60,000 bases of DNA from Schmidtea polychroa. Its lineage: Eukaryota. The notes beneath the pieces are model-generated. The model made no database searches. It had not been told where the DNA came from and was given only the letters and a program-made list of their open reading frames with translations. The translations under genes and the position numbers were made by a program. Shown in pieces: positions 11,188 through 42,511 of this stretch. The stretch lies in NCBI GenBank assembly GCA_044892525.1, contig CM097885.1, positions 22,880,001 through 22,940,000 of the forward strand, written 5' to 3'. Positions within the stretch are counted from its first letter, which is position 1, and the number at the start of each line of letters is the position of its first letter.

Positions 11188-11411
11188 TTTTCTATTAATT
11201 TTTTTCAACTGTAAAACATAATATTCCCTAAAATATTCATTAGGAGAAATTCATAACTTACTATGACTTATAATATTATTTTAGCCTGAAAATTGACACA
11301 CGCGATCAAGCAAGGAAGCAAATATTAATATAGTACAGTAACTGTTACACAACATTCGCCTTACATCGCCTTACATATTTCTGTCAACTCTTATCTACCA
11401 CAAATGGACCA

Positions 11412-18192: not shown

Positions 18193-18198
18193 CATATT

Positions 18199-19901
<1,703 letters not shown>

Positions 19902-20080
19902 GACTCCACTGTTATTGTTGTATTGTGTGAGCACACACTCGTTATAATAATTAGCAATATGAATAGAGTTTTCATGGTGTATCAAATCAAAACCTTTCTT
20001 TTACATTTATAGTCTATCAACCAATCAAAATCATCCGGTATTAGTATAAATAAAACATCATATTTTAAATTATTGTAAAA

Positions 20081-20601
20081 ATGTCTCAATTTATGGAAAA
20101 TCTTTTAAGAGAACTCGTCAACAGGAATATTATGGAAAGCCTATGTTTCCTGGTCGATCGGACCGAAAAGATTATAGAAGGTAATCACATTGATTATGAC
20201 GATGTGATCAATTCTGATTGTCTCGAAACCAAAAAATTCTATTTTAATAGAATTTTTAACTGTCTATGCGACGATCAGATGAAGTGGACCCGAATACTAG
20301 TAGGGTTCGCTTATATGAAAATAATAATCCAAAGAAGTCTATGGGACTCAGAGCACTATTATCAGTGGTCTCAAGAAGTAATACTTTTATAATTTATATT
20401 TTATTAATATTTATTTTCTAGATAATCAAGTCAAAGTTTCAACCATGGATTGAAGCCAATGGCGGATGGGGAGTACTCAATCAACTCGCCAGAAATGCAA
20501 AAGAAATAGACGATCAGAAAAGAAAATTTAAAAACTATGTAAAACTTGCAACAGGTGTTGCTATTTTGTATATTTTAACCAGATTTTTAAATAAAAATTA
20601 A
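20081..20601 (+). CDS. Bcl-2 family protein, 2 exons (20081-20377, 20422-20601), 158 aa
   Basis: BH1-like FNCLCDDQMKWTRILVGFAY; after a 44-bp phase-0 GT-AG intron, BH2 PWIEANGGW and a C-terminal TM anchor LATGVAILYILTRFL preceded by basic residues. Confidence 0.88.
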
Positions 20602-20684
20602 TATAGTTATTTTTGTTTGATTTTTAAATAAATTTTTAAATAACATTTTAAATAAATTTACAAACACTAATTAACTAAGATTTA

Positions 20685-21056
20685 TTAATTAACACATTCG
20701 CAGTCGTCATCTCCACATTTCATTATATTTTCAACGACATGATCAATACAATCATTCGTAATATTATCTTTAGATTCATCTTTAGGTTCCTCTATAGGTT
20801 CCTCTATAGGTTCATAGATTTCCTCTTGAGTTTCTTCCTCATCAATTTCTTGAGTTTCTTCCTCATCATCAAATCCTGTATCTTGACTCTCAACTAACCA
20901 GCCGATATTTAAGGCATTTGTAATAGATAATATATCCTCCATTTTCACACCAGATATTTCTGCTAACTTTTCCAACAAAAAGTTGATTAAAAATTCTAAA
21001 TAATAAATAATTCGGTAATTAATTAATTAATCATGTTAACCTTTTTCTACAGTCAT
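20685..21056 (-). CDS. Small acidic protein, 2 exons (21056-21041, 20995-20685), 108 aa
   Basis: ATG exon MTVEK joined in frame through a 45-bp GT-AG intron to EFLINFLLEKLAEISG...; Glu-rich repeats (DEEETQE, IEEP). Confidence 0.65.
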
Positions 21057-21191
21057 TTTCATCACTTTAAAACTAAATTATAAGTTTGTTTATAGATTTT
21101 CTTTGTTAAATTTGCATGTCATTTGCATTTATGTTGCAATTAATAAAGAGAAAAAAAACAAATCTGACTAATACATTTATTAAATATAACA

Positions 21192-21602
21192 TTAAAATAT
21201 TTGTGAAAGTCTAGCAGACATAATTTTCCAAATAGGAGAATATACATCATTATTATCAACTTTATATCCCTGGATTGCAATTGTTATATACCAATTTTCA
21301 TTTTCTTTGAAAGCGATTTCATCAAAGGAATCATAAAATCTTGCATATTTATTGTTGAACCATGCATGTTGATTACACGATAGATTCGAATCTATCCGTT
21401 TAAAAACATCATCAATAGTTTTGACATCAATCATTGAAAGCGTGCCGGATAAGAATTCAAATTTAGTTGGAATTAGCTTGACTGGTGCAACCAATTTCAT
21501 ATTGATTTCTTCTTTCAAAAAATACATTTTGTAGTTGTGGAACATTTGAACTGGTTGTACCATTTCTTTAGGTTTTTCGGTGCTTGAAATTTTCTTGGTC
21601 AT
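21192..21602 (-). CDS. Putative OB-fold ssDNA-binding protein (136 aa)
   Basis: Beta-rich; C-terminal WYITIAIQGYKV....YSPIWKIMSAR resembles the end of viral gp2.5-like SSBs; TATA and CCAAT boxes upstream. Function is inference. Confidence 0.5.
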   Translation of the reverse strand: MTKKISSTEKPKEMVQPVQMFHNYKMYFLKEEINMKLVAPVKLIPTKFEFLSGTLSMIDVKTIDDVFKRIDSNLSCNQHAWFNNKYARFYDSFDEIAFKENENWYITIAIQGYKVDNNDVYSPIWKIMSARLSQIF

Positions 21603-21962
21603 CGTGAATAATGAATAAATTTAAATGTTACAGGGTTTTTATACCTTTGACTCATGCCTATCAACCAATCAGATTATAGCATGTCTTTGTTTAAATTGCA
21701 TTCAAAATGCATTGATGTTGCATTGTCACATGTTCTATTTACAGATTTATTATTAATGTTTAAATTATTACATGTTTTGATATATGTACAGATTTATTAT
21801 TAATATGTTTCATTATTATTAATGTTTTTACTATTATTACTATTCATATTTCTATTACTATTATTATTATTATTACTATTATTATTATTACTATTATTAT
21901 TTCAAATATAAAACACAATAAAACACAATAAAAAAGATAAAACACAATAAAAAATACATTTA

Positions 21963-22376
21963 TTAATAACCCAAATCTACAATCTTGGAGTAGTGAAACC
22001 TTCTCAGAGTTTTCACTAACTCCCATTCGACATATCGCCGATATCGATCGGCGCAACATGAGCATCCGATGATGCACTGGTACTCTGGCTCCATTTGTTT
22101 GATGGTTCTGTTAATCTTTATATCCCACAGAAACTGGTGAAATACATCCATGATTCGAATTTGAGTCGCATAGAATATCAGATCTGGAATGATCTCAGGT
22201 TCGCGATCCTTGATAATTTCAATAATTTGAGGATAATAATATTTTATCCTTTTTATCATAACTTCTAAATATTTCTCTAAAATAATAAATAGTAAATAAT
22301 GTGAAAAAAAAATTTTAAATTTACCGGAATCGTCGATATCTTTCATGAGGGTTGCAGAGCTTGGTAATTTGTACAT
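21963..22376 (-). CDS. Hypothetical protein with CxxxCxCC motif, probable 48-bp intron (22277-22324)
   Basis: ATG at 22376; an in-frame AT-rich GTAAAT...TTTTAG segment looks intronic; three CCAAT boxes at ~22430-22466. Confidence 0.55.
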   Translation of the reverse strand: MYKLPSSATLMKDIDDSGKFKIFFSHYLLFIILEKYLEVMIKRIKYYYPQIIEIIKDREPEIIPDLIFYATQIRIMDVFHQFLWDIKINRTIKQMEPEYQCIIGCSCCADRYRRYVEWELVKTLRRFHYSKIVDLGY

Positions 22377-22450
22377 AGTGTTGAAAAAATGAATTCTAAA
22401 CAAAAAACCGTTTGTTTAAATCAATCAATAACCAATTAGAAATTAACCAA

Positions 22451-22888
22451 TTAGAAATCGACCAATGAAATTATCTCATTTCGAACATTGTCAACAAATT
22501 CTCTATACTCCAAATTTCTCAACCCCAACATGACAACCTTTCCACTAGCAAACACGTTGACACATATAGGGTTATATTTTAATAGTCTTAGTGCCGGAAA
22601 CAATTCCGGTTCAAACATACAATCACATTTTTTCGACATGTTATATAGATTGATACTATGTCCCATATCCATAGTAACGGTAATTGATTGGATTTTAATA
22701 TTATTTATTCGATATTGTAATTTATTAATATCCAAAGGTTTCTTACATCCCATGATTCTGCATTTACCAGTCTTGAAAAATATTATCGGATATTTCCCAC
22801 TTCTATCGATAATTTGCTGGGGTTTCCCTGGTGGGAACCTCATATTCGATACATCAAAATTTCCTCGATAATTTATATTTGCTAACAT
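22451..22888 (-). CDS. TATA-binding-protein (TBP)-like protein, 145 aa
   Basis: Two-repeat TBP core: LANINY / IIFFKTGKCRIMG and IQSITV...INL / FEPELFPAL / VNVFASGKVVMLG (cf. TBP YEPELFPGL...LIFVSGKVVLTG). Confidence 0.88.
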   Translation of the reverse strand: MLANINYRGNFDVSNMRFPPGKPQQIIDRSGKYPIIFFKTGKCRIMGCKKPLDINKLQYRINNIKIQSITVTMDMGHSINLYNMSKKCDCMFEPELFPALRLLKYNPICVNVFASGKVVMLGLRNLEYREFVDNVRNEIISLVDF

Positions 22889-22987
22889 TATTAAATCATT
22901 TATGAAAATTAGTCTTTATATACAAATTGAGCACGAGTTCATTAAATCATCGAATATAAACAAATACACATTTATAAAATATTTGAA

Positions 22988-23614
22988 ATGGAATTAAGAA
23001 ATGATGCTGTATACCAAATCGTTGGTCCGAGTGGTAGTGGAAAAACATTATTTGTTTGTAAATTACTAAAATCCAATTTATTCAAATCAAAATTCAACAG
23101 GATTTATTGGCATAGGGGTGCTGATGAAGAACATGGATTAACTCAATCAAGTTTCTGTAAATTAAAAAACATGAAAATAGTAAAGGGATTCGATAAAAAC
23201 TGGTCCAGCCGATTAAAGAAAGGCGATGTCATTATTATCGATGATTTGTATCAAGAAGCTAATAAAGAAAAAGATTTTAATAATTTATTTACAAAGATTA
23301 GCAGACATGTCGGTGTAACAGTTATTTTCATAACTCAAAATCTATTTCATCAAGGTGGGGCACATCGAACACGTAATTTAAATGTACAATATTTAGTCAT
23401 TTTCAAGAATCCTAGAGATGCAACAGTGATTGATTTTCTTGCACGTCAAGCATACCCTAACAATCGTAATTTTCTTATCAGTGCATTTCAAGATGCTACA
23501 AAAATACCTCATGGATATATATTTCTTGATTTCACACAACAATGTCCCGATGATTTACGTGTAAAAACAGATATTTTCAACCCAAAAGGTGCCATGGTTT
23601 ATAAACAAAGTTGA
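22988..23614 (+). CDS. Genome-packaging ATPase (A32/FtsK-HerA type)
   Basis: Walker A GPSGSGKT, Walker B IIIDD, SRH..VTVIFITQ, R-x-N and FKNPRD motifs typical of Polinton ATPases. Confidence 0.95.
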   Translation: MELRNDAVYQIVGPSGSGKTLFVCKLLKSNLFKSKFNRIYWHRGADEEHGLTQSSFCKLKNMKIVKGFDKNWSSRLKKGDVIIIDDLYQEANKEKDFNNLFTKISRHVGVTVIFITQNLFHQGGAHRTRNLNVQYLVIFKNPRDATVIDFLARQAYPNNRNFLISAFQDATKIPHGYIFLDFTQQCPDDLRVKTDIFNPKGAMVYKQS

Positions 23615-23632
23615 AAACCTCTATGAATAATA

Positions 23633-24166
23633 ATGTTTCTAAAAGCAAGGGTGAAAAATATTAGGAAATTAAGAAAAGGTATTAGAAAGACTATTAAAGT
23701 TCCAAAGGTTCCACCAACAACTAGTTATACACCATCTAAAAAACTTGTAACTGAAAATTTCTCTGCAATGAATCTTATTTCGAAAAATCCTAAACCTAAA
23801 CGTAAAACCCGTAAAACCCGTAAAACCGGTAAAAAAGTAGTTAAAAATCATCGCAGTTTTCCATTTTTTAATGCATTGTTAAAGGCTCCGAGTATGAAAA
23901 GAATGAATATATTGCAATCATTCCCAAATTTTGTTGTCGATGATTTACTCAATATTATACTTAAAGTAGTCAAAGGCAAAATTAAAATCAGTAAATCAAA
24001 AAAGCATTTATTGAGCAAACATAGGAAACCTTTATTATCTTTAGTAAATAATAAAAATCGTAAGCAAATGAGGAAAATTATATATAAACAACAAGGTGGA
24101 TTTATTGGTGCCTTGATACCTCTGGCATTATCATTATTAGGTGGAGTTGTAGGAAATCAATCATAA
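23633..24166 (+). CDS. Basic core protein with adenovirus pX(Mu)-like C-terminus
   Basis: Very K/R-rich; ends QQGG|FIGALIPLALSLLGGVVG, resembling the adenovirus pX GG|[FI]LP.LIP.IAAAIG tail. Confidence 0.75.
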   Translation: MFLKARVKNIRKLRKGIRKTIKVPKVPPTTSYTPSKKLVTENFSAMNLISKNPKPKRKTRKTRKTGKKVVKNHRSFPFFNALLKAPSMKRMNILQSFPNFVVDDLLNIILKVVKGKIKISKSKKHLLSKHRKPLLSLVNNKNRKQMRKIIYKQQGGFIGALIPLALSLLGGVVGNQS

Positions 24167-24169
24167 ACA

Positions 24170-24397
24170 ATGGGTGCTAATCCTTCATTGCCCGACATTA
24201 AATTTAATTTTAAATCTTCTTGTTGTAATGGAGAAGATTTGGACGAACCCAGAAGACGAAGCCGGTTTCGGTGGAGTGGCAAAATTAAACAAAAGAGTTC
24301 CGAATTCGAAAAAAGAAACCCAGAAGTGGTTATCAGATCAGCTTGCGTACAGTTTGAACAAACCAATGCGGAAAAGATTTCCAACAAGAGCGTATAA
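24170..24397 (+). CDS. Putative small myristoylated protein overlapping the integrase 5' end
   Basis: Starts 3 nt after the pX-like stop in context ACAATGG; MGxxxS motif, CC pair and basic patch. Confidence 0.4.
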   Translation: MGANPSLPDIKFNFKSSCCNGEDLDEPRRRSRFRWSGKIKQKSSEFEKRNPEVVIRSACVQFEQTNAEKISNKSV

Positions 24398-24615
24398 AAC
24401 ATTTGGTATTGACGATTTATGGCAAATGGATTTGATGGAGATGATACCATATTCGAAAATTAACAATGGGAATAAATATATTTTAACATGTATTAATGTA
24501 TACAGCAGGTTTGCACGAGCAATACCAGTCAAGGCAAAATCTGCAGAAGAAATGTCCAAGGCAATTAATATTTTATTTAAAGATGGACATCCTAATAATT
24601 TGCAAACAGATTTAG

Positions 24616-24704
<89 letters not shown>

Positions 24705-25334
24705 TTAGGTAAAGAATTCTACAATAGCAAAGTTAAGCAAATCCTCGATAAACTGAAAATAAATCACTACTCGGTACATTCTCAATACAAAGCTGCCCAT
24801 GTTGAAAGATTTAATCGAACATTGAGAGATAGATTAAAGAAATTGTTCGTGCATCAAGGTAATAAAAAATGGGTAAATGCTTTACCGAAAATAATAACAA
24901 GTTATAATCATTCATCACATCGAGGACTGAATGGATTGAGACCGGTTGATATTACATCAAAAACACCATTATCTAAAAAATCTGTAAAAATTGCAAAACC
25001 TAAATATAAAGTCGGTGACCATGTTAGAATTAGTAAAATTAGTGCATCACCATTTATTAAAAATTTTGATACAAATTGGAGTGATGAAGTCTTTGTAATT
25101 TCAAAAATAAATACTAAACAGAATCCTGTAATGTATGTCATCAAAGACAATGATAATAATATTGTACAGGGGAAATTTTATGAGCAGGAATTACAAGTCA
25201 TTCCTCCCCCAAAAGTATTTAGAATTCAAAAAATATTGAAAACTAAAAAGGTCGGTAAGGATAAACAATACTATATCAAATGGCACGGTTATCAAAACCC
25301 GTCATGGATATCGTCAAAAGACCTAGTAAAATGA
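24228..25334 (+). CDS. int: Retroviral-type (rve) integrase with C-terminal chromodomain; 2 exons (24228-24615, 24709-25334), 337 aa
   Basis: WQMD, LQTD-LG-KEF (after removal of a 93-bp intron) and VERFNRT DDE motifs; YKVGDHVRI, NWSDEVF, GKFYEQEL; chromodomain RIQKIL...YYIKWHGY..PSWI. Confidence 0.95.
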
Positions 25335-26335
25335 ATTTTTATATTATTTTACCTAGCAATAGCTGTCCACTTATTCATCCAGATAATAAAGCCAGCAAAT
25401 TCAGGGTCAATCTTCAAAATCCGATATATTTGGATAATAGCTGGGAAGTTGCTCTGTTGGATTTTACATTTGTATACCAAGCCTTTCCATTTTATAGTAA
25501 GGCTAAAATTGGATACAAAAAGAATGAGTGGCAGGATAGATTATTGTCTATGATCATTGATAATGCAGATGATGAAGTTCGGTTGTCTAACTCAACTGAT
25601 CCAGCTGTGAAAATGTATATTAACCATTCATATATAGTAGTTGAATGTAAACATTATCCTTTTACTGTAAAATTTGATAGTTTGGAAATGGCAAAACGAT
25701 TGGAATTAAAAACCCAAAGTCATAAAGTTCTTTCCGATAAATTCACTATGCTACGACCGGGATATTCCAAAACTGTACAGCGATTTGAACCAATTTTATT
25801 TACAGTTTCATATCCGGGTATAACGTCTGGTACATTTGAGTTCAAAGATAATTTATACATTTCGAAATTGGATGAATTACAGACATATTTAAAACAAAGT
25901 GGTTTATTTAAATCATTGGAAATATCAGACAGATTCAAATTCAGTTTGAATCCCGAATTTACTGAAATTACTTTTGATGCAAATCTAATAAAAACATTAG
26001 GATTATCAAAAGCAACATATGCTCAAGATGATCAAGGTACCCTAGCTCCGAAAATAATTAAACTTCACCAACAAATGTTCATCTATAGTAATATTGTTGA
26101 TCCTGTAATTGTTGGCGATTCTTTGGTCCCACTCCTGAAATCTGTTTGGATTGAAAAATATGAACATGATGAAGTAGTCAATATAAATATCGATAATCCC
26201 ATGTATTTACCTGTGTCAACCTCATGTATAAACAATATAGAAATAAATATACGTGATGATTCTGGTAAATTAATCGCATTTCCAAAAGATTCAAAAACTC
26301 ATTTAACATTACATTTTCGTAAAGTAGATGGCTAA
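25331..26335 (+). CDS. Minor capsid protein (penton)
   Basis: N-terminal FYIILPSNS...N....F...L..P..L...WEVAL and C-terminal IYSNIV....VGDS..PLL...Y.PV....I..IEI.IRDD.G...LHF motifs; ATGA overlap with the integrase stop. Confidence 0.9.
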   Translation: MNFYIILPSNSCPLIHPDNKASKFRVNLQNPIYLDNSWEVALLDFTFVYQAFPFYSKAKIGYKKNEWQDRLLSMIIDNADDEVRLSNSTDPAVKMYINHSYIVVECKHYPFTVKFDSLEMAKRLELKTQSHKVLSDKFTMLRPGYSKTVQRFEPILFTVSYPGITSGTFEFKDNLYISKLDELQTYLKQSGLFKSLEISDRFKFSLNPEFTEITFDANLIKTLGLSKATYAQDDQGTLAPKIIKLHQQMFIYSNIVDPVIVGDSLVPLLKSVWIEKYEHDEVVNINIDNPMYLPVSTSCINNIEINIRDDSGKLIAFPKDSKTHLTLHFRKVDG

Positions 26336-26693
26336 TTCGGATATTATAAGTATGTATAGTGGTAGCCAATCTGGCGGTGAATTACCATATTTTATTGGTA
26401 AACAGTACGGATCAGGATGGTTGAGAACAATTGGTAGATTTGCACTTCCTATTCTTAAACGTATTGGTAGTTTTGGTATGAAAACTGCTAAAGATGTTAT
26501 TATGAATGAACAGAAAATATTACCATCTCTAAAATCAAATGCTTTAGCAGAATTAGGGAAAGTTTTACCCGGGGTTGCAGGTATGTTTCAAAAACCAGCT
26601 CCAGCTCCAGCTCATGCTCCAAAACGTAAAAGACATGGAATATCACGTATAAACAAACGAATGAAAGGCCATGGAACTATATTTGCAAAATGA
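26328..26693 (+). CDS. Conserved Polinton virion core/cement protein (PW-like)
   Basis: QSGG.LPYF.G.QYGSG followed by an amphipathic basic helix (WLRTIGRFALPILKRIG); lies immediately upstream of the MCP. Confidence 0.7.
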   Translation: MANSDIISMYSGSQSGGELPYFIGKQYGSGWLRTIGRFALPILKRIGSFGMKTAKDVIMNEQKILPSLKSNALAELGKVLPGVAGMFQKPAPAPAHAPKRKRHGISRINKRMKGHGTIFAK

Positions 26694-27913
26694 TTTGTGG
26701 TAAATCTGAATTATGTATATTTGATAGACCGTCGCCCCAGGCTGTAATAGAATTTGGGGCGTTTGAGGAAGTTTTTCCAATGAATTCAATTACTGATAGT
26801 AGAAATGATATAGAGTTTTATATTAATGGTTCGCAAACTGAATATTTAGATTTGAACGATACTTTATTGACTGTTCAGATCAAGGTTATAGATAAAGATA
26901 AAAAAGCTTTGGGTGATGCTGCTGATGCAATACCGAACAATTTCATGTTTCATACTCTTTTTAAAGATGCTGTGTTGGGATTTAATAATATCAAGATTGA
27001 AGGTGGTAATAATACATTCATTCACAAGGCTTTGATAGAAACTATTTTAAATTACAATTCCGATACTAAAAATACATGTCTTACTCCAATGGGATATGCT
27101 GCAACCGACGATGAAAGAAAAAAGTGGATTAAAGGCTCAAAAACATTCACCATGTGTTCATCGTTACAACTCGATTTTATGGATCAACCGAAATATTTGC
27201 TTCCAGGAGTTAATGTCCACATTCGATTGAAAAGATCCGATTCTGCACTAACTCTTACTAGTGCTACAGGTGCACCAATATGTCAATTAGTTGATGCAAA
27301 ATTATTGGTGAGAAGAGTTCGAGTAGACCCCTCAGTATTAGCTGGTCATCAATTGGGTCTTAATTCAAAACATGCAATTTATCCATTAAAAACAAAGGAA
27401 ATTGTACAATTTGCTATTGCTAAAGGTGCTTCATCATTCTATAAAGAACAAATATTTGGTGACAGAAGAATGCCTAATTTTATTCTGATAACATTTCAAA
27501 GTGAAGCACAATATAATGGATCATATACTGCGTCCAGCTCAATTTTCAAAAACTTCGGTGTTACATCATTGACTTTGTCGAAAAATACTGATTATAGAGA
27601 AACATATATTCAAGATTTCGAGAATGACAATTACTGCGCGACATATATGCAGAGTATTGTTAGAAATCTCGGTTATTTAGATAAAAATTTGAATTGCGGA
27701 ATAACACTAGAAGAATTTAAAAGCAAATACCCATTTTTTACATTTGTTTTAGCCCCTGATTTTGATTTAAATCAAAGTCAATTACCTCAAAATGGAAATT
27801 TACGACTGGATATAAAGTTTGCAAAAGCTATTACTGAACCAGTACATGTTATAATATATGGAGTATTTGAAAATGAAGTTCAAATTACTGCAAATAGAAC
27901 AGTGTTGGTATAA
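26690..27913 (+). CDS. Major capsid protein (double jelly-roll)
   Basis: C.KSEL..F start, IEF.I.G...YLDL..T.L, Q.KYL..GV...I.L.R, G.LRL..KF...L......I.YG.F...V.I...R motifs of Polinton MCPs. Confidence 0.93.
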   Translation: MICGKSELCIFDRPSPQAVIEFGAFEEVFPMNSITDSRNDIEFYINGSQTEYLDLNDTLLTVQIKVIDKDKKALGDAADAIPNNFMFHTLFKDAVLGFNNIKIEGGNNTFIHKALIETILNYNSDTKNTCLTPMGYAATDDERKKWIKGSKTFTMCSSLQLDFMDQPKYLLPGVNVHIRLKRSDSALTLTSATGAPICQLVDAKLLVRRVRVDPSVLAGHQLGLNSKHAIYPLKTKEIVQFAIAKGASSFYKEQIFGDRRMPNFILITFQSEAQYNGSYTASSSIFKNFGVTSLTLSKNTDYRETYIQDFENDNYCATYMQSIVRNLGYLDKNLNCGITLEEFKSKYPFFTFVLAPDFDLNQSQLPQNGNLRLDIKFAKAITEPVHVIIYGVFENEVQITANRTVLV

Positions 27914-28325
27914 ATGTATACAGAAACACAAAAAGTTATCATGGAGTAAGTTGTTTTTTATACTCTGGATTTATTTAAATAGTTCTGTTCAGGTCAATAA
28001 AATCGGAAAACAGATATTGGGAAATGAATTTGTTGGAGTTTTTCCTCTTGATAAAATTCCATATTTGAGCAATAATCAAGCAATAATCGTCAATACTCAA
28101 TCGTCTCATCTTGGTGGAGAACATTGGATAGCTATATATGTGAAACCTGGTAATATATTCGTGTTCGATCCTATGGGTTTCTATTACCCAGCTTTGTTGA
28201 TATCAAAACTACAAACAATGGGAAAACCTATTGTGTATAATAAAACTATGTTTCAAAATCCTTTGACCCAAACATGCGGTCAACATTGTTTAGCTTGGTT
28301 ATTGTACAAAAAATTTGATGTTTAA
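27914..28325 (+). CDS. Adenain-type cysteine protease; 2 exons (27914-27945, 27983-28325), 124 aa
   Basis: F.GVFP.D, IVNT.....GEHW, FDP.G, Q.....TCGQHC catalytic motifs; a 37-bp GTAAGT...AG intron restores the MDSVQV start. Confidence 0.92.
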
Positions 28326-28414
28326 AGAAAAATGTTTAATAAATTTGATGTTTAATAAATGTATCCTTTCCTTTGTTGTTGTGTTATTATTATTAATATT
28401 ATTATTATTATTAA

Positions 28415-28460
<46 letters not shown>

Positions 28461-28821
28461 ATTATTAATATTATTATTATTGTGAAAAATATTATTATTT
28501 TTAATTAATTTTATTATTATTCTAATAAATATTATTATTTGTAACATAAAGACTGCCTTTGCATGAGGCATGCACAGTGCAAGTTAACAAAGGCATGACT
28601 AACAAAGGCAGTCACATGTAATTCTGACTGATTTACATTACATACATGCATGCGTGTGATTGGTTGAGAGAGTAAAATATTCAATGTATATGTGTGTGTG
28701 TCTATATTCTCATTGGCTGGGACAGGAAAATATTCATTCTCTTTATAAACATTGACAAATCTAAAATTTGTCACAATTATTTCAAATTTTTCAAATTTCG
28801 ATTTCAATTTTAAAAATCTAA

Positions 28822-29496
28822 ATGGCTAACAATAATAAAAATGGAATTCTAAGAAATCTTTTGACGACAATGGGTAATTTATTTTATTTTATTTTATTAT
28901 ATTTTATTTTATTATTATTTTAGAACCATTCGATTGGTACGATGTAACGGAAGATGACTCGATATTAACAGTGGATAAGATCTTCGGTAAATTTATTATT
29001 ATAATTTTTAATAAATTATTTTTTTTTCAATTCAGAAAATGCTTCAAATAGCGACGATGATGTCGTCTTTATCGGGGAAAGTAATGCTCCTAATAAGATC
29101 TTTGGTAAATTTATTATTATTTTTTTTATTAAATTATTTTTTTTTCAATTCAGAAAATGTTTACAATAGCGACGATGATGTCGTCTTTATTGGGCAAACT
29201 GATGCCCCTAATTATGCCCCTAATTATGCCCCAGTTCTCAAAGAAAAAAGTAAATTTTATTATTATTTCTATTAAATTAATTTTCATTTCAGAAAATGTT
29301 TTAAATGTTGATATTGACGAAGAAGAAATTAATGTCCTCGCATCGGATGATGGTGAAATCTGTGAGAATGATGGGCAAATCTCATCGGATGATGATCAAA
29401 TCTCAGAGAATGATGGGCAAATCTCATCGGATGATGATCAAATCTCAGAGAATGATGGGCAAATCTCTGAGAATGATTCCGACATGGAATCAAAAT
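28822..29496 (+). CDS. Five small exons (28822-28873, 28924-28986, 29036-29104, 29154-29249, 29293-29496) encoding an acidic leader with SIM-like motifs; probably the 5' part of polB
   Basis: Four 43-50 bp phase-1 GT-AG introns keep one open frame; duplicated exons encode SDDDVVFIG; ends at a phase-1 donor GTAAGA at 29497. Confidence 0.7.
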
Positions 29497-30244
29497 GTAA
29501 GAAATATTTATTTTTATATATATATTTTGTTTTTTATTTATATGTTAAATTTGTAATAACTTATTTAAATATTTTGATAAAAAACTTTTTTAAATATTTT
29601 AATAAAAATTATGATGAAACTTCTGAAGAAAATGATTTTATGATTTATAATGAAAATATACCGAAAAATTATGAAGAAAAATGATTATATGTTTTATAAA
29701 GAAAATGATGAAAATATGACGAAAATTATGATGAAGAAAATTATGAATTTATGATGAAGAAAATAGGATGAAAATCAATTATGATGAAAATGATTTACAA
29801 CCAAAATTATGATGAAAATGATTTATGATGATATAATGAAAATGAATTATGATGAAGATATGACGAAAATTATGATGAAAATGATTTATGATGATATAAT
29901 GAAACTTCTGAAGAAAACTATTTTATGATGAAAATTATTTATACCGAAAATTATGAATTTATGATGAAAATGATTTATGACCAAAATTATGATGTAAATG
30001 ATTATACTAAGTTTCTGAAAGTTATTATTATCAAAATATTTAAAAAGTAAAAAAAAAAATCAAATTTTATTTTATTAAATTTCTCGGGCCTCCTGGCCAA
30101 GAAGGGGAGATCGATTCTCACCCTTATGTAATCTGAAGCTTTTATTTGGATAAACAATAGATGCTGGAGTGTAATACTCCTACATTAAACGTTCTGTAAG
30201 AGTTCTGTCAGGTTTCGGTATTAGTTGTTGATGTTAGGAATTGT

Positions 30245-30821
30245 TAGGAGAGGCTTGTTAAGGCTTCTGTCAGGTTCAGTATTGTTAAGGCTTCTGTCAG
30301 GTTCAGTATTGTTAAGGCTTCTGTCAGGTTTAGTATTGTTAGGCTTCTGTCAGGTTCAGTATTGTTAGGGCTTCTGTCAGGTTTAGTATTGTTAGGCTTC
30401 TGTCAGGATCAGTAGGAGAGGCTTGTTAGGGCTTCTGTCAGGATCAGTAGGAGAGGTTTGTTAAGGCTTCTGTCAGGTTCAGTAGGAGAGGCCTGTTAAG
30501 GCTTCTGTCAGGTTCGGTAGGAGAGGCTTGTTAAGGCTTCTGTCAGGTTCAGTATTGTTAAGGCTTCTGTCAGGTTCAGTATTGTTAAGGCTTTAGTATT
30601 GTTAGGCTTCTGTCAGGTTCAGTATTGTTAAGGCTTCTGTCAGGTTTAGTATTGTTAAGGCTTCTGTCAGGTTTAGTATTGTTAAGGCTTCTGTCAGGTT
30701 CAGTAGGAGAGGCTTGTTAAGGCTTCTGTCAGGTTCAGTAGGAGAGGCTTGTTAAGGCTTCTGTCAGGTTCAGTAGGAGAGGCTTGTTAGGGCTTCTGTC
30801 AGGTTCAGTAGGAGAGGCTTC
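30245..30821. repeat. Tandem minisatellite of 26/27/35-bp units (core GGCTTCTGTCAGGTTCAGTA)
   Basis: Many direct copies visible, with outliers at ~30200 and ~31150-31215. Confidence 0.9.
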
Positions 30822-31619
30822 TATGTGGTTAGGAGCACTAAAAGTTAATTAAGTAGGGCGGAGTTGGAAGACTCCATTTGTGGTCAAATATTATACATTA
30901 TATTATATTAAGTATTAGAAAGATAGGTCAAAGGAAGAGGTATTATTAAAGATAGGTGGTTATAATGGATATACAACAAACTAAGAACTAAAAAAATTGA
31001 AAAAAAGGAATTATCAGTGAGGCGGAGCCGCTACAGGGGCTCCTACATTGACCTACACTGATAATATACACGGATAATATGTCAGATAGTTTAGTTGCAA
31101 TCTGAGTCCTAGGTGGGACGTGGGAGGTTTGTCGGGTGATGTTTTAGTATTGTTGCGGCTTCGGTCAGGTTCTGTAGTAGCTGTTGGGAGAGGCTTGTTA
31201 AGGCTTCTGTCAGGTTTATTCATCAAAGGATGTGGTTGGATTCATTCAGGTTATATTTGCTGTAGATTATAAGTAAATATATTGTATATAGATATAGGGT
31301 TTTCCCATTCCGGTCAGTGCTATGAATGTTTTAAGAAACAGAATAATTCAGATAATCATATCAATTTATTTCTAAATGTAGTTTAATATCAATTAAAGTA
31401 AATATAGGAAGGATGTTGTATAGATTTATAGTTAGAGAGATAATGCAATTTTAAATTAAGATTAGTTAATATTCATAAGAGGAGTATGATAAGTATATAT
31501 AGTCAAATTAAAATTGACTCAAAAATCAAAGTTAATTTAAATATTAGGAATATAAATTAGCGAATATAAATGAGGGTATTTAATATATATACATATATAT
31601 TGTAACTTAGTTAAATTAT

Positions 31620-32725
31620 TTAGATTGAGATATTTGAAAATCTCAATTTCCAAAATAACTAGTAATTTAAACAATTGTCAATTAAATTCGAAATGTATTT
31701 TATTACCAATTTAATTCAAAAAGTATTTTATTATAAAATTATTTAATTAAATATAGATAGGATTATGTATACAATAAAATTTTAAATATAGTTAGTATTC
31801 AAAAGATGAATATATATATAGTTAACCAAAATCCAAGTTAATTCATACCTTAAGAGATTAAGGTATAGATATAGTCAAATTAATTAAATTTTAATGAATA
31901 TAATTTTATAATAGGAAATTATAAATAAGGGTAAGTTTTATATCTAGTATATATAAAGATAACGATATTTGAAAATTTCAAATTCCAGGATAATTAGTAA
32001 TTTAAACAAATATCAATTAATTCAATATATAGATATAGTTAAATTAATTATAATTAAGCTTTTAAGGAATATAGTTTTATAATGGTGATATGAAGGTTAG
32101 ATATAAATAAGGGTATATATATATATATATATATATGAGAAATTAAATATAGATAGGGGTACATATAATTTATAAAAAATTTAAACAAAATTTAAACAAG
32201 TGTATTTTATTACCTATTTAATTCAAAAAGTATTTTATTATAAAATTTAATTAAATATAGATAGGATAATGTATACAATAAATTTTAAATATAGTTAGTA
32301 TTCAAAAGATGAATATATATAGTTAAATTAAAATTAAACCAAAATCCAAGTTAATTCAAACCTTAAGAGATTAAAGTATAGATATAGTCAAATTAATTAA
32401 ATTTTAATGAATATAATTTTATAATAGGAAATTATAGATAAGGGTATTTTTTATATCTAGTATATAATGATAGTAAAATTATTTAAATTGAGATATTTGA
32501 AAATTTCAAATTCCAAGATAATTAGTAATTTAAACAAATATCAATTAATTCAATTTATAGATATAGTTAAATTAATTATAATTAAGCTTTTAAAGAATAT
32601 AGTTTTATAATGGTGATATGAAGGTTAGATATAAATAAAGGGTATATATACATACATACATATATACATACATACACATATATATATATATAAATATGAG
32701 AAATTAAATATAAATAAGGGTATAT
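31620..32725. repeat. Imperfect ~0.5 kb AT-rich tandem duplication
   Basis: Blocks such as TTTAATTCAAAAAGTATTTTATTATAAAATT (~31710, ~32217) and GATATTTGAAAAT recur. Confidence 0.75.
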
Positions 32726-32768
32726 ATAAAAAATGTTGAAGATATTTCACCGTGATACATAGCTGAGC

Positions 32769-34532
32769 TTATAAATCCAAGTTGCAGTCTGCATCATAGG
32801 ACGAATCGGAAGTAGAATCTGAATTGGAGATATTATCGGAGTCTGAATCACAGGGAGGATCGGAAATGGAATCGGAGCTAGAGATGTTAAGAGGGTCTGA
32901 ATCTGTGTATGTGCATTCAGTGATGTAGTTTGGAGCATAGACACGAACGGAAGCATAATTTCGATCATACTCAGAAATTGAGTCAGAATCTGGGTATGAA
33001 TCAGTATCAGAGCTAGACTCGGAATCTGGATCAGAATCAGAGAATGACTCTGAATCTGGATATGAATCAGGTTGTTTCTCAATATCTGTCATCTTCTTTT
33101 CAATAATACTGTCATCAATAAGATTTATATAGTGGGCATTCAGTGTTGTAGAGTGGTTTTGAATTTGGGCTGTTGGTAGATAAGTATTCATGATAAATAG
33201 ATTATCTTCTTTGTTGGCAGTTTTAGTAGGCTGTTTTTCAGTATCCGGTTTTGTTTTAGTAATGCTGTCGTCCATAATATTGACATTATGGGCATTCAGT
33301 GATGTATAGTTTTTTGAATTTTCGGCTGTTGGTGGATCAGTGTTCATGATAAATAGATTATCTTCTTCGTTTGTATTATTAGGTTCATTGCTCGGTAATT
33401 CGGTATTAGATCTAGAATTGTCATCTGTTTGGACTTCAACATCGTACCTAGCAGATAATAAATCGAAATGCATATTATCTAGAGTATTAATAGGTTTTAT
33501 TGGTATAGGACTAGAGTAGTGGGGTCTAGGTAGGTTAATATAGTTTGAGGTTTTTGGTTTCCAAATTTTGACGGTCGGTTTTGGTATAGAATAAGGTGGA
33601 TTTATTTGAGTTATTGTATTATTCTTAGGTCTCCTGCCAACATTTTCCGGGAGCCGGCCTCGGGCCGGCGAGCTGCGTATATTATTCTTTTCGTCCTCCG
33701 ACGGAGGACGAAAAAAATTTTCAGCATGGTCATCAGATCTGAAATTTGGTGAAAATTTAAACAAATTTTCCCTTAAATTTTCTTTAAATATTTTAATTTT
33801 TCTATTTTTGATTTTGTTAATTTTTCTTTTTCTCTTTTTATAATTAAATTTCACGTTATTAGGCTTTTCATTATTCATTTTTACATTATTAGGTTCTACA
33901 ATATTAAGTTTTACATTATTATTAAGTTTAGTATTATTAAGTTTTAAATTATTAAATTTTACATTATTAAAATCATTTATGAAAAAATCATTATAATATT
34001 TAATGTTAAGATTATTATTAAGAAAGGATATATATTTGATACTTTGAGAGTCTTTTTTATAATTTTTATCAAAGGGTGTTTTTTTAATTTTATCTTTATA
34101 AGAAATATTATTAGCAGTATTATTTTTGAAAACATTTTTATAATTAGATAGGTAATTTTGATTATTAGTTACTTTTAGCAGCCATATTTCTATGGCCGCT
34201 TCGAACGCGTTTAGGAAATCCACGTGCTGTTCATGGACCAGGTCTCCTATGATGAAACTTCCAAAGACCATTTTATCGGCATATTTGAAAGTGTTTAAAC
34301 TGATGTTCCTAAAGTTGGTGCCGATACTTTCCCATATTGCGATTCGAAGATCCTGTGACATATCAATGTTTCCTGCAAAATAGTTAAATAATTGATAAGC
34401 AAGATAGAACTCATTGATTTCTGCCCCAGTGCTAGTGAATGTTATATGGAGTAATTCTACTAAGCACTGAGGACTTTTACAGAAAATTTTCAGCATGGTC
34501 AAATTATGGTTATAAATCCTTGTAGTTTGCAA
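32769..34532 (-). CDS. Hypothetical 587-aa protein: globular N-terminal ~125 aa, basic NLS-like region, Ser/Asp-rich tail
   Basis: A long stop-free ORF in very AT-rich DNA; KKRKRK, duplicated EDNLFIMNT..PTA motif and SD repeats; no family recognised. Confidence 0.7.
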   Translation of the reverse strand: MQTTRIYNHNLTMLKIFCKSPQCLVELLHITFTSTGAEINEFYLAYQLFNYFAGNIDMSQDLRIAIWESIGTNFRNISLNTFKYADKMVFGSFIIGDLVHEQHVDFLNAFEAAIEIWLLKVTNNQNYLSNYKNVFKNNTANNISYKDKIKKTPFDKNYKKDSQSIKYISFLNNNLNIKYYNDFFINDFNNVKFNNLKLNNTKLNNNVKLNIVEPNNVKMNNEKPNNVKFNYKKRKRKINKIKNRKIKIFKENLRENLFKFSPNFRSDDHAENFFRPPSEDEKNNIRSSPARGRLPENVGRRPKNNTITQINPPYSIPKPTVKIWKPKTSNYINLPRPHYSSPIPIKPINTLDNMHFDLLSARYDVEVQTDDNSRSNTELPSNEPNNTNEEDNLFIMNTDPPTAENSKNYTSLNAHNVNIMDDSITKTKPDTEKQPTKTANKEDNLFIMNTYLPTAQIQNHSTTLNAHYINLIDDSIIEKKMTDIEKQPDSYPDSESFSDSDPDSESSSDTDSYPDSDSISEYDRNYASVRVYAPNYITECTYTDSDPLNISSSDSISDPPCDSDSDNISNSDSTSDSSYDADCNLDL

Positions 34533-34570
34533 TGTGCATCTACAATAGTTAAAATAATAATAATAATAAT

Positions 34571-35025
<455 letters not shown>

Positions 35026-35032
35026 TTTCTTT

Positions 35033-35077
<45 letters not shown>

Positions 35078-35280
35078 TATAAATAATAATCAGACCCCGT
35101 CTACTAAAATCTCTCTAATATTCTATCGAATATATTAACCTATTTTCTATAATGATTTATCATCATTTGTTATTTAATTCAAATGAACTATATAACAAAT
35201 GATGATAAATCCTTGTAGAAGTAACAATTAGTTTTCTATATAGAAAAAAACAATAAAATTTTAATTTTATTATTTAACAG

Positions 35281-38200
35281 GTATACTATACCCGAACTAT
35301 TGTCAAACATCAATTGGACATAGTGATAAATGTCATAGAACAATGACAAAATATTACCGAAAAAAGTTTAATTCGGTCAACTTTTTTATATGCCCCAAAT
35401 GTGTAACGAGCGAAAAAATAAAATATAGGGAATTTTTTAATAAACATCATAATCACTTAGGGCAATTTTCGATATCAAAAAATGTTTTATTTAAAAAAAT
35501 AAATAAAAAATTAAATAAAAAAAAAAAATTAGAAAATAATTTACAAAAAAACTTACAAAAAAATTTAGAAAATAATTTACAAAAAAATTTGCAAAAAAAT
35601 ATTAAAAAAAATAAAAAAAATATTATTAAAGATTCAAATATTAAAAAAGATGCTATTAAAAAAGATACTATAAATATTATTAAAAAAGATATTATAAATA
35701 TTAAAAAAGATTCTATTAAAAGACCTGCTGGTTTAATTAAAAATTGCATTCCTAATAAATTATCGCGACCTGAAGTGATAGTCATCAGCAAAGATGAATG
35801 TGTAGCTTCAACATCGTTTACACACCAAGCACCCATTACACAACACGCACCCATTACACAACAAGAAGTGATAGTCATCAATGATGAATGTGTAGCTTCA
35901 ACGTCTTTGAACATATGCCAAATAGGCGGCTCTTTATTTGAACCTATGGTAGAATCCGATTTGAACGGATCGCGTAAAACTTTAAGATTTGATATTAGAA
36001 ATCAAAACTTAGTAAAAATAGCCCTAACATCAAAAATTGAAGATAGATTAATACAGGAAATAGAAAAGATGGGCAATGTAAAAATTCAATTCACAATTTT
36101 AATTAAATTTGAAAAAGATGGGGAGATCCGGGATAATTATTTTTCAAACAATGCTCAAGTTTTTACATCAAACTTTATAAACGAGGGGGTGAGCAAATTA
36201 AATGAAAAGATTGAGCAATTCACCTATTTAGGAAGCGGGTGGCGAGTAATGAATATTTTAGAAATAGATTTTATTTTAACGAAATACGCACCCGTCAGTA
36301 GATTATCCGGACATAGCTATATAAAAACCCCATCAGCATTAAAATTAAAACATGCAATAATTAATGTAAAAAACAACGACCATAAGTGCTTCTTGTATAG
36401 CATTCTTGCACTTTTAAAAAGAGAAGAAATAGGTCGTAATCACCAAAGAGCCGCCAAATATATAGAATTTTTACCTCTATTAAATTATGACGAAGACACT
36501 GATTGCCCGATGAGGCTATGCAACATTCCCAAATTTGAAAGAAAAAATAGAGATTTAAACTTGAGCATAAACGTTCTGTCTTATAATCCAGCCAGTTCTG
36601 ATTTAGATATTTCTGAGGATTATGTAGCTCACCACCCTCATCTTAATATAGTACATCGCTCCAAGGTTATAGACGGTAGACCAATTTATTTATTACTTTT
36701 GAGTAATAAAGATAAATATCATTATACAGCCGTGACAGACTTGGACAAATTAATGAATTGTCATGAAAATGAAAATGTAAATGTTCAAATAAGGTGTAAC
36801 TGGTGCCCACATTGTTTAAATGGCTTTAGATATAAGAATGCTTTCGATCAGCATGTTGCTCTATGCTGTAAAAATCAGACTGGCACAACTTTGTATACAC
36901 TTCCTAAAAATAAAGATTTATTATTCACAGATTACGCGAAAACAGTTACACCTCCCTTCGTAATTTATGCCGATTTTGAATCGGTTTTACCAGAACATGA
37001 AACATATCATCAAATACATTTACCCATATCAGCAGGTCTTTTATTAATTAATAATTATACACACACTAAATTTTATTATTATTTTTTTGGACCTAATTGT
37101 ATTTTGGATTTTTTGAGGAAAGTGGAGGAAATTGCTGTCACAATTGTCCTGCCATATTATGATCTTGAAGGTCGTAAAGGTATGTCTACTTTGTCTTTTG
37201 CTCAGGAGCGTGCCTTTCGATCTTCCACTATTTGTTATTTGTGTAAAAAATCTATTATTAATCCTGTGAGAGATCATTGCCATTTTACAGGTAGATATGT
37301 CGGAGCGGCATGTAGGAAATGCAATGTCTCTCGCAGGATTAATAAATTGTTACCTGTTGTCTTTCATAATTTACGAGGCTATGACCTCCACCATATTTTA
37401 AAACATGGTCTCAGTGATTTTCCCCTTTGGGAACTTAATATTATACCTACCTCTACAGAAAAATTTATATCTTTAATTGCATATATTAACAAATTGCCTG
37501 TTCGTTTTATTGACAGCATGCAATTTGTTAATTGTTCTTTAGCAAAAGCTGTGAAAACCTTAACTACTTTTCCTTTGACTTCGTCTGTCTTTCAAGGGTC
37601 GATGATTCACTCTAAAGGTATCTTTCCATATAATTTCGCCACTTCTTTAGATGTTCTTGAATCGACTTTAGAATTACCTCCTATTTGGTCTGATGTTACG
37701 GAAGATCAGTACGCTGAGGCTCAACTAATTTGGAGTCAGCATAACTGTAATAATTTGTTAGATTATATGTTAATCTACCTAAAATTGGACGTATACCTCC
37801 TCGCAGATTATTTTCAGCAATTCCGCGGTAAGGCAATTGCTTACAATGGTCTGGATCCTCTTAATTTCTACGGGATTCCCGGTATGTCATGGGCCTCAGC
37901 GCTTATGACATTAACGGAACCAATAGAACTTCTGCAGGACATGGAAATGTATAATTTCTATGAGGGAGGTATCCGGGGTGGGTTAACATTTGTTAACAAA
38001 CATTACACGGCTACTTCAGATGATACAGAATTATTGTACATTGATATAAATAATCTGTATGGTTGGGCTCTTAGCCAAAATCTTCCGTATGGTGATTTTT
38101 CTTGGGTGAATAATAACTTGAATGATGTTTTACTTGAATGTATGAACACGGATATTGATAACCTTCCATATGGGTATACTATGGAGGTCGATATCGATAT

Positions 38201-39338
38201 TCCGGAATGTGTGCATGACTTTTTGAATGATTTTCCGCTTGCGCCGGAAAAGTTGTGCCCGCCTAATTCAAAAGTTGAGAAGCTTATGCTTACGCATTGG
38301 CCAAAGAGGAACTATGTTCTTCATTGGAGGCTTCTCAAATTGTATATAGAATTAGGTGCGGTTGTTGTAAATATTCATAGGTGTATAAAGTTTAAACAAG
38401 GACCTATCTTTAAATCCTACATAGACACCAACACCACTTTACGATCTCAGTCTACTAGTGAGATATATAGGGACTTGTTTAAATTGTATAATAACTCTCT
38501 TTACGGTAAATCGGTTGAAAATTTGAAAAAAAGAAGGAATTTGAGGTTGTGTAATTCATCCGAAAATATGATAGTATACTCCTCAAAGCCGACTTTCAGA
38601 AAGTCCATAAGAATCGATAACGATCTGATTGCGGCACATTTGGAAAAAGATGTGATTTGTTTAGACAGACCTAGCTACATTGGTCAAACAGTACTAGATC
38701 TGTCTAAACTGCGGATGTACCAGCTCCAATATATTGATTTGGAGAAGTACAGACGCCAATATAAATGTATCATAAATATTATTGCCGGTGATACCGACAG
38801 TTTCTTTTTGGAAATAAAAAATTTAAAATTAACAACTTTATTACCTCAGATGATCTCTGATAATTTATTGGATACATCAAATTACGATCCAACCCACCCC
38901 TTGTATAGTAGGAACCTTGACTCGGTCATCGGGAAGTTTAAAGATGAGAGCAAGGGATTAGGGTATTCTGAATGGGTTTTCTTACGCCCTAAATGTTATA
39001 GTCTTTTAGGTAGTAAGGAAACGGTAAAAGCAAAAGGGGTTAAATTACCAGGGACATCAATAAATCACGAATCATATCTAAATTGCTTTCATTCAAATCA
39101 GGTGATTTCTGTACCGCAGACTAGAATAGGTACTAGAAATCACCAACTTTTTACTTTTAAAAATTCGAAAATTGCCCTAAGTAATAATGATGATAAGCGC
39201 GCGTGGCTAGGAAAAAACTTAAGTTACGCATTTGGGCACTATTTAGGAGTTGACGAATTAAGCGAATATGATGAGGAATTCGGTCCAGCTCCAAGTCCCA
39301 GTTTTGACGACAGCGAATGGGACGAAGATCAAATTTAA
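35281..39338 (+). CDS. polB: Protein-primed family B DNA polymerase (main exon; first in-exon ATG 35343) with terminal-protein/vOTU-like region and EndoVII-like insertion
   Basis: GSGW, DHKCF...HY, ExoI YADFES, CxxC..DHCHFTG.Y.GAAC..CN, ExoII FHNLRGYD, motif A YIDINNLYGWA, motif B KLYNNSLYGK, motif C GDTDS, KCY, KAKGV, DDKR. Confidence 0.97.
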
Positions 39339-39659
39339 ATAGAAAAAACTTTATATTTTTGATTCATAAAAACTTGTATAGTGATTTCATGATTTATAAA
39401 AAATTGTATAGAAACTTTTATTTAAAAACTTGTACAAAAACCTGTATATTGTATAAAACTTGTATTTATATATACATATTCAATAAAATTTTTAATCAGA
39501 TTTTTTAAGTATTTGGTGTTTTATTATAATTTTTTTATATTTAATGGTGATTTTTATATAGTCTGCAGTGAGCATGCAGCTATATGTTTTATATAGTCTG
39601 CAGTGGGCATGCAGCTATATCAATGAAATAATAATAATAATAATATTAATAATATTAAT

Positions 39660-39741
<82 letters not shown>

Positions 39742-39749
39742 TTAATAAT

Positions 39750-39801
<52 letters not shown>

Positions 39802-39879
39802 CTTTAAACAGGTTGCAAAGGGTACTAGTCATGCTTATTATTGTTATACATTTGATGGTTACATTTTGAAAGCTCTATT

Positions 39880-40311
39880 TTGATTTTTAATAAATCAATA
39901 TGTGTTTGTCCGAATACAGCCAAGTTGATGGATATTTTATATATTCTCGATAAACCAAAATGGTCAAAGCATCCAGGAAAAAGAATATCTCAAAGATTGG
40001 AGAATTTAGAAAACAGTTATGAACTAACATTTGAATATATACAAAATATAAAAATTAAATTGATTGATCATATTGAGGTTTTCAATAACTCTATTACTGA
40101 AAATAAAAAGAATATGAAGATTATTGATAAGAAGCATGATTATTTGTTAAAAAAGATTGAATTATTATTAAGAGAAATTCAAACAATCAAAGGATCAATA
40201 GAATATCTAAAAATCAATTCAACGTTACCAATTTCTAACAATAATGCTGCGAATAGAAGTGCATCAATATTTAGTTTACCTTTGTTAATTTTACATTATT
40301 TTATTGTTTAA
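39880..40311 (+). pseudogene. 5'-truncated TIR copy of the coiled-coil/GPI-type gene
   Basis: Protein identical to 19475-19975 from FNKS onward but lacks the signal peptide; the ORF opens on TTG. Confidence 0.7.
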
Positions 40312-40436
40312 ATAAATGTATGTTTTGTTGATTTGTTGAGCGTGACCAGTACCCTTGTGAGCATTACCCATAGGGGGACAAAATATTTTGTCGGATAGAC
40401 TCAGAGTATATAGACTCGGTGTATATAGATTAATAC

Positions 40437-40493
<57 letters not shown>

Positions 40494-41438
40494 GATATAT
40501 GGCTCATTCGAAAGGTCTTGGATTGAGCTTTAAAATGAGCTATCGATTATTAATTTTCGTTGGCGGGAACTTTGAAAAAATTAAAAATAAAATAATAATA
40601 TTTTTAAAAATAATAATAAAAATAATAATATTTTTTAAAAATAATAATATGACCTTGATGAGTCATCGCGATGACTCATATGACCTTGGGAATGACCTTG
40701 GATGAGTCATGTGACCTTGAAAATGACCTTGATGAGTCATAGGATGACTCAGATGACCTTGAAAATGACCTTGAAAATTTTGATGAGTCATCGGATGAGT
40801 CATATGACCTTGAGAATGACCTTGATGAGTCATAAGATGAGTCATATGACCTTGAAAAAAATTTCTCAAGGTCAAATGAGTCATACTATGAGTCATATGA
40901 CCTTGAAAATGACTTTGATGAGTCATACTATGAGTCATGTGACCTTGAAAATGCCCTTGATGAGTCATATTATGAGTCATATGGCCTTGAAAAAAATTTT
41001 TCAAGGTCAAATGAGTCATACTATGAGTCATACGACCTTGAAAATGACCTTGATGAGTCATACCATGAGTCATATGACCTTGAAAATGACCTTGATGAGA
41101 CATGGTCTTTGTTTAAATGACCTTGAGAAAATTTTTTTGACCTTGATGAGTCATATTGTGAGTCATATGACCTTGAAAATGACCTTGATGAGTCATCGGA
41201 TGAGTCATGGTCTTTGTTTAAATGACCTTGAAAAATTTTATGAGTCATAGGATGACTCATGGTCTTTGTTTCAATGACCTTGATGAGTCATATGTCTTTG
41301 TTTAAATTTGACCTTGAAAAAAAATGTACTTTTAGACTTAGAATATTTTTGAAAATCTTACCGACGGGGGGGAGGGGGGAGGGGGGGGGGGTACTGTGCT
41401 AGCGGTGCCCTGTGCCAGCGGTGCCCAATCCATCTACT
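39885..41438 (-). repeat. Right terminal inverted repeat (1554 bp)
   Basis: Reverse complement of 18199-19901. Confidence 0.95.
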
Positions 41439-41444
41439 CATATT

Positions 41445-42360: not shown

Positions 42361-42511
42361 GCTTGATTGTAAAAAAAATTGCATTATAAAGAATTATGTT
42401 AGTTAATTAAAGTCTTTGATTTTGTGATTTTAGTTATTTTTTATGTTTTTGGTTCTTCTTGCATTGACATAAGTATTGATCTGTTTTAATGTCTTTAATA
42501 GTAATAATAAT

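Follow-up and report, generated by a model that had tools for sequence, protein, structure and literature searches.

The window – the whole 60,000-nucleotide stretch of DNA analysed here – holds a complete Maverick/Polinton, whose integrase gene is split by a short segment of ATT repeats. The main features of the element, other than the integrase gene, are:

18199..41438: complete Maverick/Polinton, 23,240 bp, with AGTAG...CTACT ends and inverted arms that are 99–100% complementary
18193..18198, + strand: target site duplication of 6 bp on the left side, repeated exactly at 41439–41444
18199..19901, + strand: left terminal inverted repeat (partner at about 39885–41438)
22451..22888, − strand: TBP-like gene, 145 aa (Pfam TBP, E 1.6e-15)
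22988..23614, + strand: A32-like packaging ATPase (Pfam Pox_A32, E 3.6e-7)
27858..28325, + strand: adenain-like protease (Pfam Peptidase_C5, E 4.6e-6)

Open reading frames (ORFs) of 1331, 407 and 351 aa stand at the usual Maverick places and gave no Pfam match; a polymerase-like ORF (35343–39338), putatively a protein-primed PolB, and capsid ORFs may be among the element's genes, these labels coming from motifs and layout. Homologues of the TBP-like gene lie near an integrase in 7 of 48 related metagenome loci. Terminal inverted repeats with AG..CT ends, a 6-bp target site duplication, a DDE integrase, a packaging ATPase and an adenain-like protease were all found, and the element thereby resembles animal Mavericks/Polintons (adintoviruses), whose inverted repeats, AG..CT ends, 6-bp target site duplication, rve integrase, A32-like ATPase and adenain-like protease are set out in passages of PMC8097293 and PMC8502044. 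Judged from its perfect target site duplication and from arms that are 99–100% alike, the Maverick at 18199–41438 is evidently young.

The inverted repeats extend into coding sequence, where a 166-aa ORF (19475–19975, − strand) is partly duplicated at 39928–40311 (+ strand). Tandem arrays also occur within the element (30255–30820, 34670–35090), of 27/35-bp units and of ~191-bp units that alternate with AAT tracts 5′ of the polymerase ORF. The terminal repeats, otherwise identical, differ in an ATT tract that counts 52 units on the left (19193–19348) and 18 on the right (40438–40491), pointing to very fast slippage.

The family is very abundant in its organism, the contigs of one sequencing run giving 32,979 records on 2.7 kb, and a Maverick expansion is reported in part of a Dugesia preprint (10.64898/2025.12.11.693146). 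Sibling copies were compared over the upstream flank of the integrase segment in contigs from 4 of 23 sequencing runs, where 35 of 38 coding variants fall at third codon positions (the 38 being among the 40 variants listed of 293, with two intergenic). Diverged Maverick families, about 85% alike, occur in the same runs. None of the 23 listed runs is on record as RNA, and two that might be RNA cover intergenic sequence and may themselves be DNA.

The split integrase gene and other candidate introns

The integrase gene and the segment within it are laid out as follows.

24228..24615, + strand: integrase part before the segment, with the first Asp codon at 24429–24431 and the second at 24609–24611
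24616..24708, + strand: candidate phase-1 GT–AG intron, 93 nt, within the Gly codon two residues past the second catalytic Asp
24618..24704, + strand: pure (ATT)29 microsatellite forming the body of the putative intron, from repeat analysis and inspection of the sequence
24611..24618, + strand: 8-bp direct repeat, copy 1 (copy 2 at 24704–24711)
24709..25334, + strand: integrase part after the segment, open, 73% identical to its best relatives, with the catalytic Glu codon at 24804–24806

The upstream part matches Pfam rve (63–128, E 1.2e-5) below the curated cut-off, because the segment splits the domain. A profile of the integrase alignment matches 23 solved sequences, mostly retroviral integrases; in this match, the region around the second catalytic Asp of the solved retroviral cores lines up with the TD of TDLG. 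Downstream of the segment, 208 codons are open and the invariant columns are kept; the C-terminal part is chromodomain-like in relatives. Residue 90 (codon 24495–24497) is Asn here and Asp in 169 of 172 homologues; as both sisters that are 99% identical (P0144 and P0123) also have Asn, the change is a family trait, and the integrase of this family may be impaired whether or not the segment is removed.

The segment reads GT(ATT)29TTAG, beginning GTATTA and terminating TATTTTAG (TTTTAG), and in 24 of 24 aligned homologues a 31-column gap matches it exactly. The original prediction of a 93-bp GT(ATT)n..TTTTAG segment just past the second catalytic Asp is thus confirmed, and so is its expectation that the segment would be in frame and stop-free: the ORF at 24228–25334 reads through it without interruption as TDLG, 29 Ile (about 30 had been predicted), LG and KEF. 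This openness, however, carries little weight, because (ATT)n translates as Leu, Tyr or Ile in its three frames, none of which contains a stop, and being in frame is a one-in-three event. The retained poly-Ile would have a hydropathy of 4.5 over 19 residues, compared with at most 0.82 elsewhere in the protein, and retention beside the catalytic Asp would very likely inactivate the integrase.

At the two junctions, where AGGT had been noted at both ends, the direct repeat proves real but longer: it comprises 8 bp, TTTAGGTA, with 5 nt to the left and 3 nt to the right. Any intron of the form GTA...TTTAG at this exon junction would, however, yield the same repeat, and a GTA start with a TTTAG end is seen in four of nine hand-picked candidate introns of the window, this one included. 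Likewise, GT..AG flanks are by themselves modest evidence, since any duplication of the site supplies both, albeit among the 14 merged ATT tracts of the window (at least five units each) only this one has GT just before and AG just after, with about 0.12 such cases expected by chance over the 14 tracts. The body is (ATT)29 and does not copy the adjacent exon, only the 8 terminal bases being repeated, so that classical tandem genomic duplication does not apply; an original body might conceivably have been replaced later by slippage.

The Maverick contains seven other GT..AG candidates of similar A/T make-up, picked by eye from a list of sequence patterns:

22277..22324, − strand: 48-nt candidate intron in a 137-aa ORF, used as a control and also in frame; sibling copies have 1-nt indels within it
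20378..20421, + strand: 44-nt candidate intron in a small ORF, by sequence pattern
28874–28923, 28987–29035, 29105–29153 and 29250–29292, + strand: four candidate introns of 43–50 nt in a small gene, by sequence pattern
35221..35280, + strand: candidate intron of 60 nt in phase 1, preceding the polymerase-like ORF, with an upstream ATG in the right phase

At 43–60 nt, all seven are shorter than the 93-nt integrase segment but near it in size. Its donor, GTATTA, is weaker than those of the other eight candidates, which are of the GTAA type. The segment contains neither a YTRAY word nor an internal TAA; because five of the nine candidates likewise lack YTRAY, the host may not need that word. The candidate at 28874–28923 resembles the integrase segment in how it ends and also has no branch-point-like word. 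Ahead of the polymerase-like ORF, at 35199–35342, a tiny candidate upstream exon precedes the 60-nt candidate intron; past the acceptor, an open frame runs on into the long ORF.

The control candidate at 22277–22324 carries a +1 indel with a depth of 11,667 out of 11,866 in X5, 63 out of 63 in X7 and 26,047 out of 337,915 in X1, while 12 of the 14 variants listed for the surrounding 137-aa ORF are at third positions. Given these indels together with the third-position bias, it behaves as a real intron, and its in-frame length in one copy can be a coincidence. None of the 15 joints listed of 202 falls at this control intron, a count that was given no weight for or against splicing. Outside the Maverick, a 36-nt AT-rich GT..AG candidate lies at 9348–9383 (+ strand), with AG|GT at both junctions.

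Relatives with and without the break

In most relatives the motif is whole. It is intact in 327 of 357 gathered proteins and uninterrupted in all 42 metagenome loci that cover it (48 were fetched); among the best 120 of 971 matches to the downstream part, TDxGxEF is uninterrupted in 118, the other two lacking that region. Five further loci comprise three that the same pattern shows to be uninterrupted, a distant relative that is likewise whole, and L052, which has an unrelated insertion. A motif so nearly universal marks the segment as derived. The closest uninterrupted relatives are 78–81% identical, and 5 of the 42 uninterrupted loci have the same 12 bases at the junction without an insert, so that an AG|GT proto-splice site exists there independently of the segment. 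No relative was found in scans of viral contigs; exact look-ups in one protein collection left the integrase and four of five other element proteins unmatched (absence from that collection being weak evidence), while the neighbouring ATPase of this Maverick family was found whole.

A search for short homologues combined with cluster look-ups found five homologous proteins that depart from the family at Gly130/Lys131:

P0144: 99% identical to the N-half; 17-residue Ile-rich tail, mixed rather than pure Ile
P0123: 99% identical; a deletion, in frame, that starts at the Gly of the putative intron boundary and leaves the last 14 residues
P0126 and P0214: about 75% identical; both end in KIII, one from a JGI and one from a Logan assembly
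P0127: 74% identical; ends one residue past the Gly

With five homologues departing at the same Gly/Lys, among them both near-identical sisters that were found (P0144 and P0123), the break appears to be common to other lineages and not private to this copy; these cases are known as proteins, and their termini may reflect the edge of a contig or a chimeric join instead of a stop. Presence of a break at the site thus extends across copies, as seen in protein, but the pure, in-frame and stop-free form predicted from this copy is not conserved. Donors of the GTAA or GTAT type would be consistent with the tails, given a Gly codon ending in T. If the end of the P0144 tail is an acceptor TAG, its intron would measure 56 nt, within the range of the element's other candidates; nothing elsewhere in the window matches the tail itself convincingly. 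The P0123 breakpoint lies at the edge of the tract, which may be fragile, or the junction may be an assembly artefact.

Protein ends are concentrated at the site in 6 of 56 sequences (P 0.007), or in 4 of 54 once near-copies are collapsed (P 0.08), in what was a post hoc comparison. A search of 50% clusters yielded no further same-site read-through case. The broken group does not include P0132 (ending at Lys131, with no tail) or P0157 (ending at 129), either of which may simply stop at the edge of a contig, nor does the count take in P0347 and P0359 (37% identity), which diverge from the family two residues further on. Unrelated breaks also occur near the motif: one in P0157, a residue earlier, and one in L052, rejected as a same-site case on account of an unrelated, GC-richer insertion directly after the Asp codon. 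At L052:262–1009 a related integrase is thus cut, past the catalytic Asp codon, by DNA that starts TGT and is possibly an LTR element.

Inheritance, gain, disablement or control

The feature is real, and most likely an ordinary intron in an unusual place and with an unusual body. The exact gap in homologues, the host-style ends, the same-site breaks and the presence of other short candidates lend the predicted intron indirect support. We lean towards an ordinary host-type (U2-type) spliceosomal intron at 24616–24708, probably constitutively spliced and likely inherited from an ancestor shared with the ~75% lineages, whose body has probably since turned to ATT. An intron would have entered the coding junction AG|GT, a likely proto-splice site, and would have been passed down within one clade of these integrases, the host spliceosome taking GTATTA as the donor and the T-rich TTTTAG as the acceptor. 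The unconstrained body would then have been overrun by ATT slippage, a mark of this genome. With presumably little constraint beyond A/T-richness, the body would be free to drift from copy to copy, in both length and content. The dead products of retention would differ – here a hydrophobic insert of 31 residues, in relatives a premature end – and such differences across copies fit a leak, not a conserved second product.

The likeliest inheritance has to be set against an independent and fairly recent gain of a real intron, with ATT-rich filler entering at a staggered break or target duplication of TTTAG|GTA, duplication of the site supplying both splice sites, and the ~75% lineages broken in parallel. 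The original prediction had likewise derived the intron from AGGT duplication plus repeat expansion. The 8-bp direct repeat speaks for such a gain, but the splice consensus itself provides that repeat, as in the four of nine candidates noted above, and in Drosophila, according to passages of PMC3443670, repeats flank 26% of conserved and 25% of gained introns. Parallel gains are known from new introns in Daphnia (43 of 90), with terminal repeats of 4–12 bp, as described in part of PMC4202315. Two trees of N-halves bear on the number of events, one built from 56 of 145 (the 55 best-scoring plus P0132) and the other from 31. In them the lineages with same-site breaks are 0.45–0.56 changes per site distant, and the broken rows form two groups inside an unresolved clade, joined in 7–8% of bootstrap trees; the free trees call for two changes in more than 90% of bootstraps. 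Yet the test does not reject a single origin, which even scores the higher likelihood, the best tree with the six rows together lying 1.49 lnL units above the free search (p-AU 0.55). By identity, the uninterrupted relatives at 78–81% are nearer than the broken ones at 74–75%, which again favours separate gains, while the 99% sister P0144 has a mixed rather than a pure tract, which does not. We regard independent gain as rather unlikely, and a duplication origin as unneeded for this copy, the consensus yielding the repeat and lineages diverged by ~25% breaking here too.

About equally improbable is that the segment is spliced hardly or not at all, being instead an insertion that disables the gene and was carried along by a subfamily moved in trans by other Maverick families, the GT and AG ends of the insertion being by-products of the duplicated site. 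A weak donor without a branch-point word would agree with this, as would the replacement, in each of the three near-identical sequences, of a nearly invariant Asp by Asn, the loss of most of the P0123 integrase through a deletion starting at the site, and the diverged families in the same runs, which could supply integrase. Against this, the 208 downstream codons remain open with their invariant columns kept, same-site breaks 0.45–0.56 changes per site away are hard to square with a long-lived dead gene, and the element has other candidate introns, one of which shows the indel behaviour of a real intron.

Still less probable – indeed quite unlikely – is the regulated switch that had been proposed on the model of the P element, in which most cells would retain the segment and make an integrase that is inactive or acts as a repressor, integration being allowed where the segment is spliced out, in germ or stem cells or upon piRNA loss. 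The weak donor and the place beside the catalytic Asp, where retention would very likely inactivate, could be read in its favour, and P element IVS3 offers a precedent in passages of PMC7776569; any catalytic-domain intron inactivates when retained, however, so that position is no evidence of regulation. The retention product is not conserved – poly-Ile here, an end within 1–17 residues in the relatives' proteins – most relatives transpose without the segment, and a crude word test of the 120 nt upstream of the donor came up with one GT[AG] and no pseudo-donor pair. The switch therefore gains no support here.

A further reading, which we likewise consider quite unlikely, takes the entire intron for a hypermutable microsatellite with a weak donor and no branch-point word, whose length and purity would govern splicing efficiency; every one of the family's very many copies would then have its own dial on integrase output, tuned by slippage. 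If true, this would amount to control like that of a contingency locus, biasing copies between integrating and quiet or episomal states, and possibly read differently in stem or germ cells.

Known systems and wider consequences

The core genes of vertebrate Mavericks are described as intronless in the accessible text of PMC8097293, as are those of a nematode Maverick element in part of 10.1101/2022.07.12.499685; by contrast, the integrase gene and probably the polymerase gene here carry short host-type intron candidates. The string 'splic' is absent from the accessible part of the adintovirus paper (PMC8502044). A literature search, mostly of papers available without subscription, found no report of a spliceosomal intron in a Maverick integrase or of a pure-microsatellite intron in such an element.

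The closest parallels lie in other mobile elements. Ginger1 DNA transposons likewise have spliceosomal introns (one to four, GT–AG) in a retrovirus-like integrase gene, at positions common to families, according to passages of PMC2836005; unlike the element here, they are cut-and-paste transposons without polymerase or capsid genes, and no microsatellite-only intron was seen in those passages. Dinoflagellate introners resemble the present case in placing introns inside full-length proviruses that resemble Maverick-Polintons, as parts of PMC11957031 describe, but they are transposon families of complex sequence, whereas the segment here is a simple repeat with no sign of mobility.

New introns at AGGT, Daphnia neointrons included, share with the segment an insertion at AG|GT and a short terminal direct repeat, and the routes described for such gain in the accessible portions of PMC3443670 and PMC4202315 are tandem duplication, transposon target duplication and double-strand-break repair; the difference is that the site of the present segment is also broken in diverged lineages. 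As for P element IVS3, retention would abolish transposase activity there much as it would very likely abolish integrase activity in the candidate here. Its tissue- and piRNA-dependent control, its exonic silencer with two pseudo-5′ sites and its 66-kDa repressor are described in passages of PMC7776569; such regulation, a silencer and a defined repressor are features of the P element, whereas the candidate segment has no conserved retention product. The accessible portions of PMC12220804, PMC4683709 and 10.1101/2023.08.22.554363 add nothing further to this comparison.

Surveys count Mavericks as intact only when their ORFs are uninterrupted, and this copy would be classed as degraded. An intron near the active site, common to diverged lineages, would lead intactness screens to miss or misclassify active invertebrate families, and it would tie these lineages to nuclear transcription and the host spliceosome. 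An intron of almost pure (ATT)n that is polymorphic over a high-copy family would also offer a natural way to test how little sequence splicing requires in this host. A regulated switch would matter more, albeit nothing yet supports it.

Outside the Maverick, a tract of ~60 ATT units lies before a host MFS transporter gene, a single long ORF at 11334–12866 (+ strand; Pfam MFS_1, E 4.9e-26). To the right of the Maverick is a 4.4-kb element with 327-bp inverted arms (42040–42366 and 46110–46436; 98%) and an internal 18-bp array.
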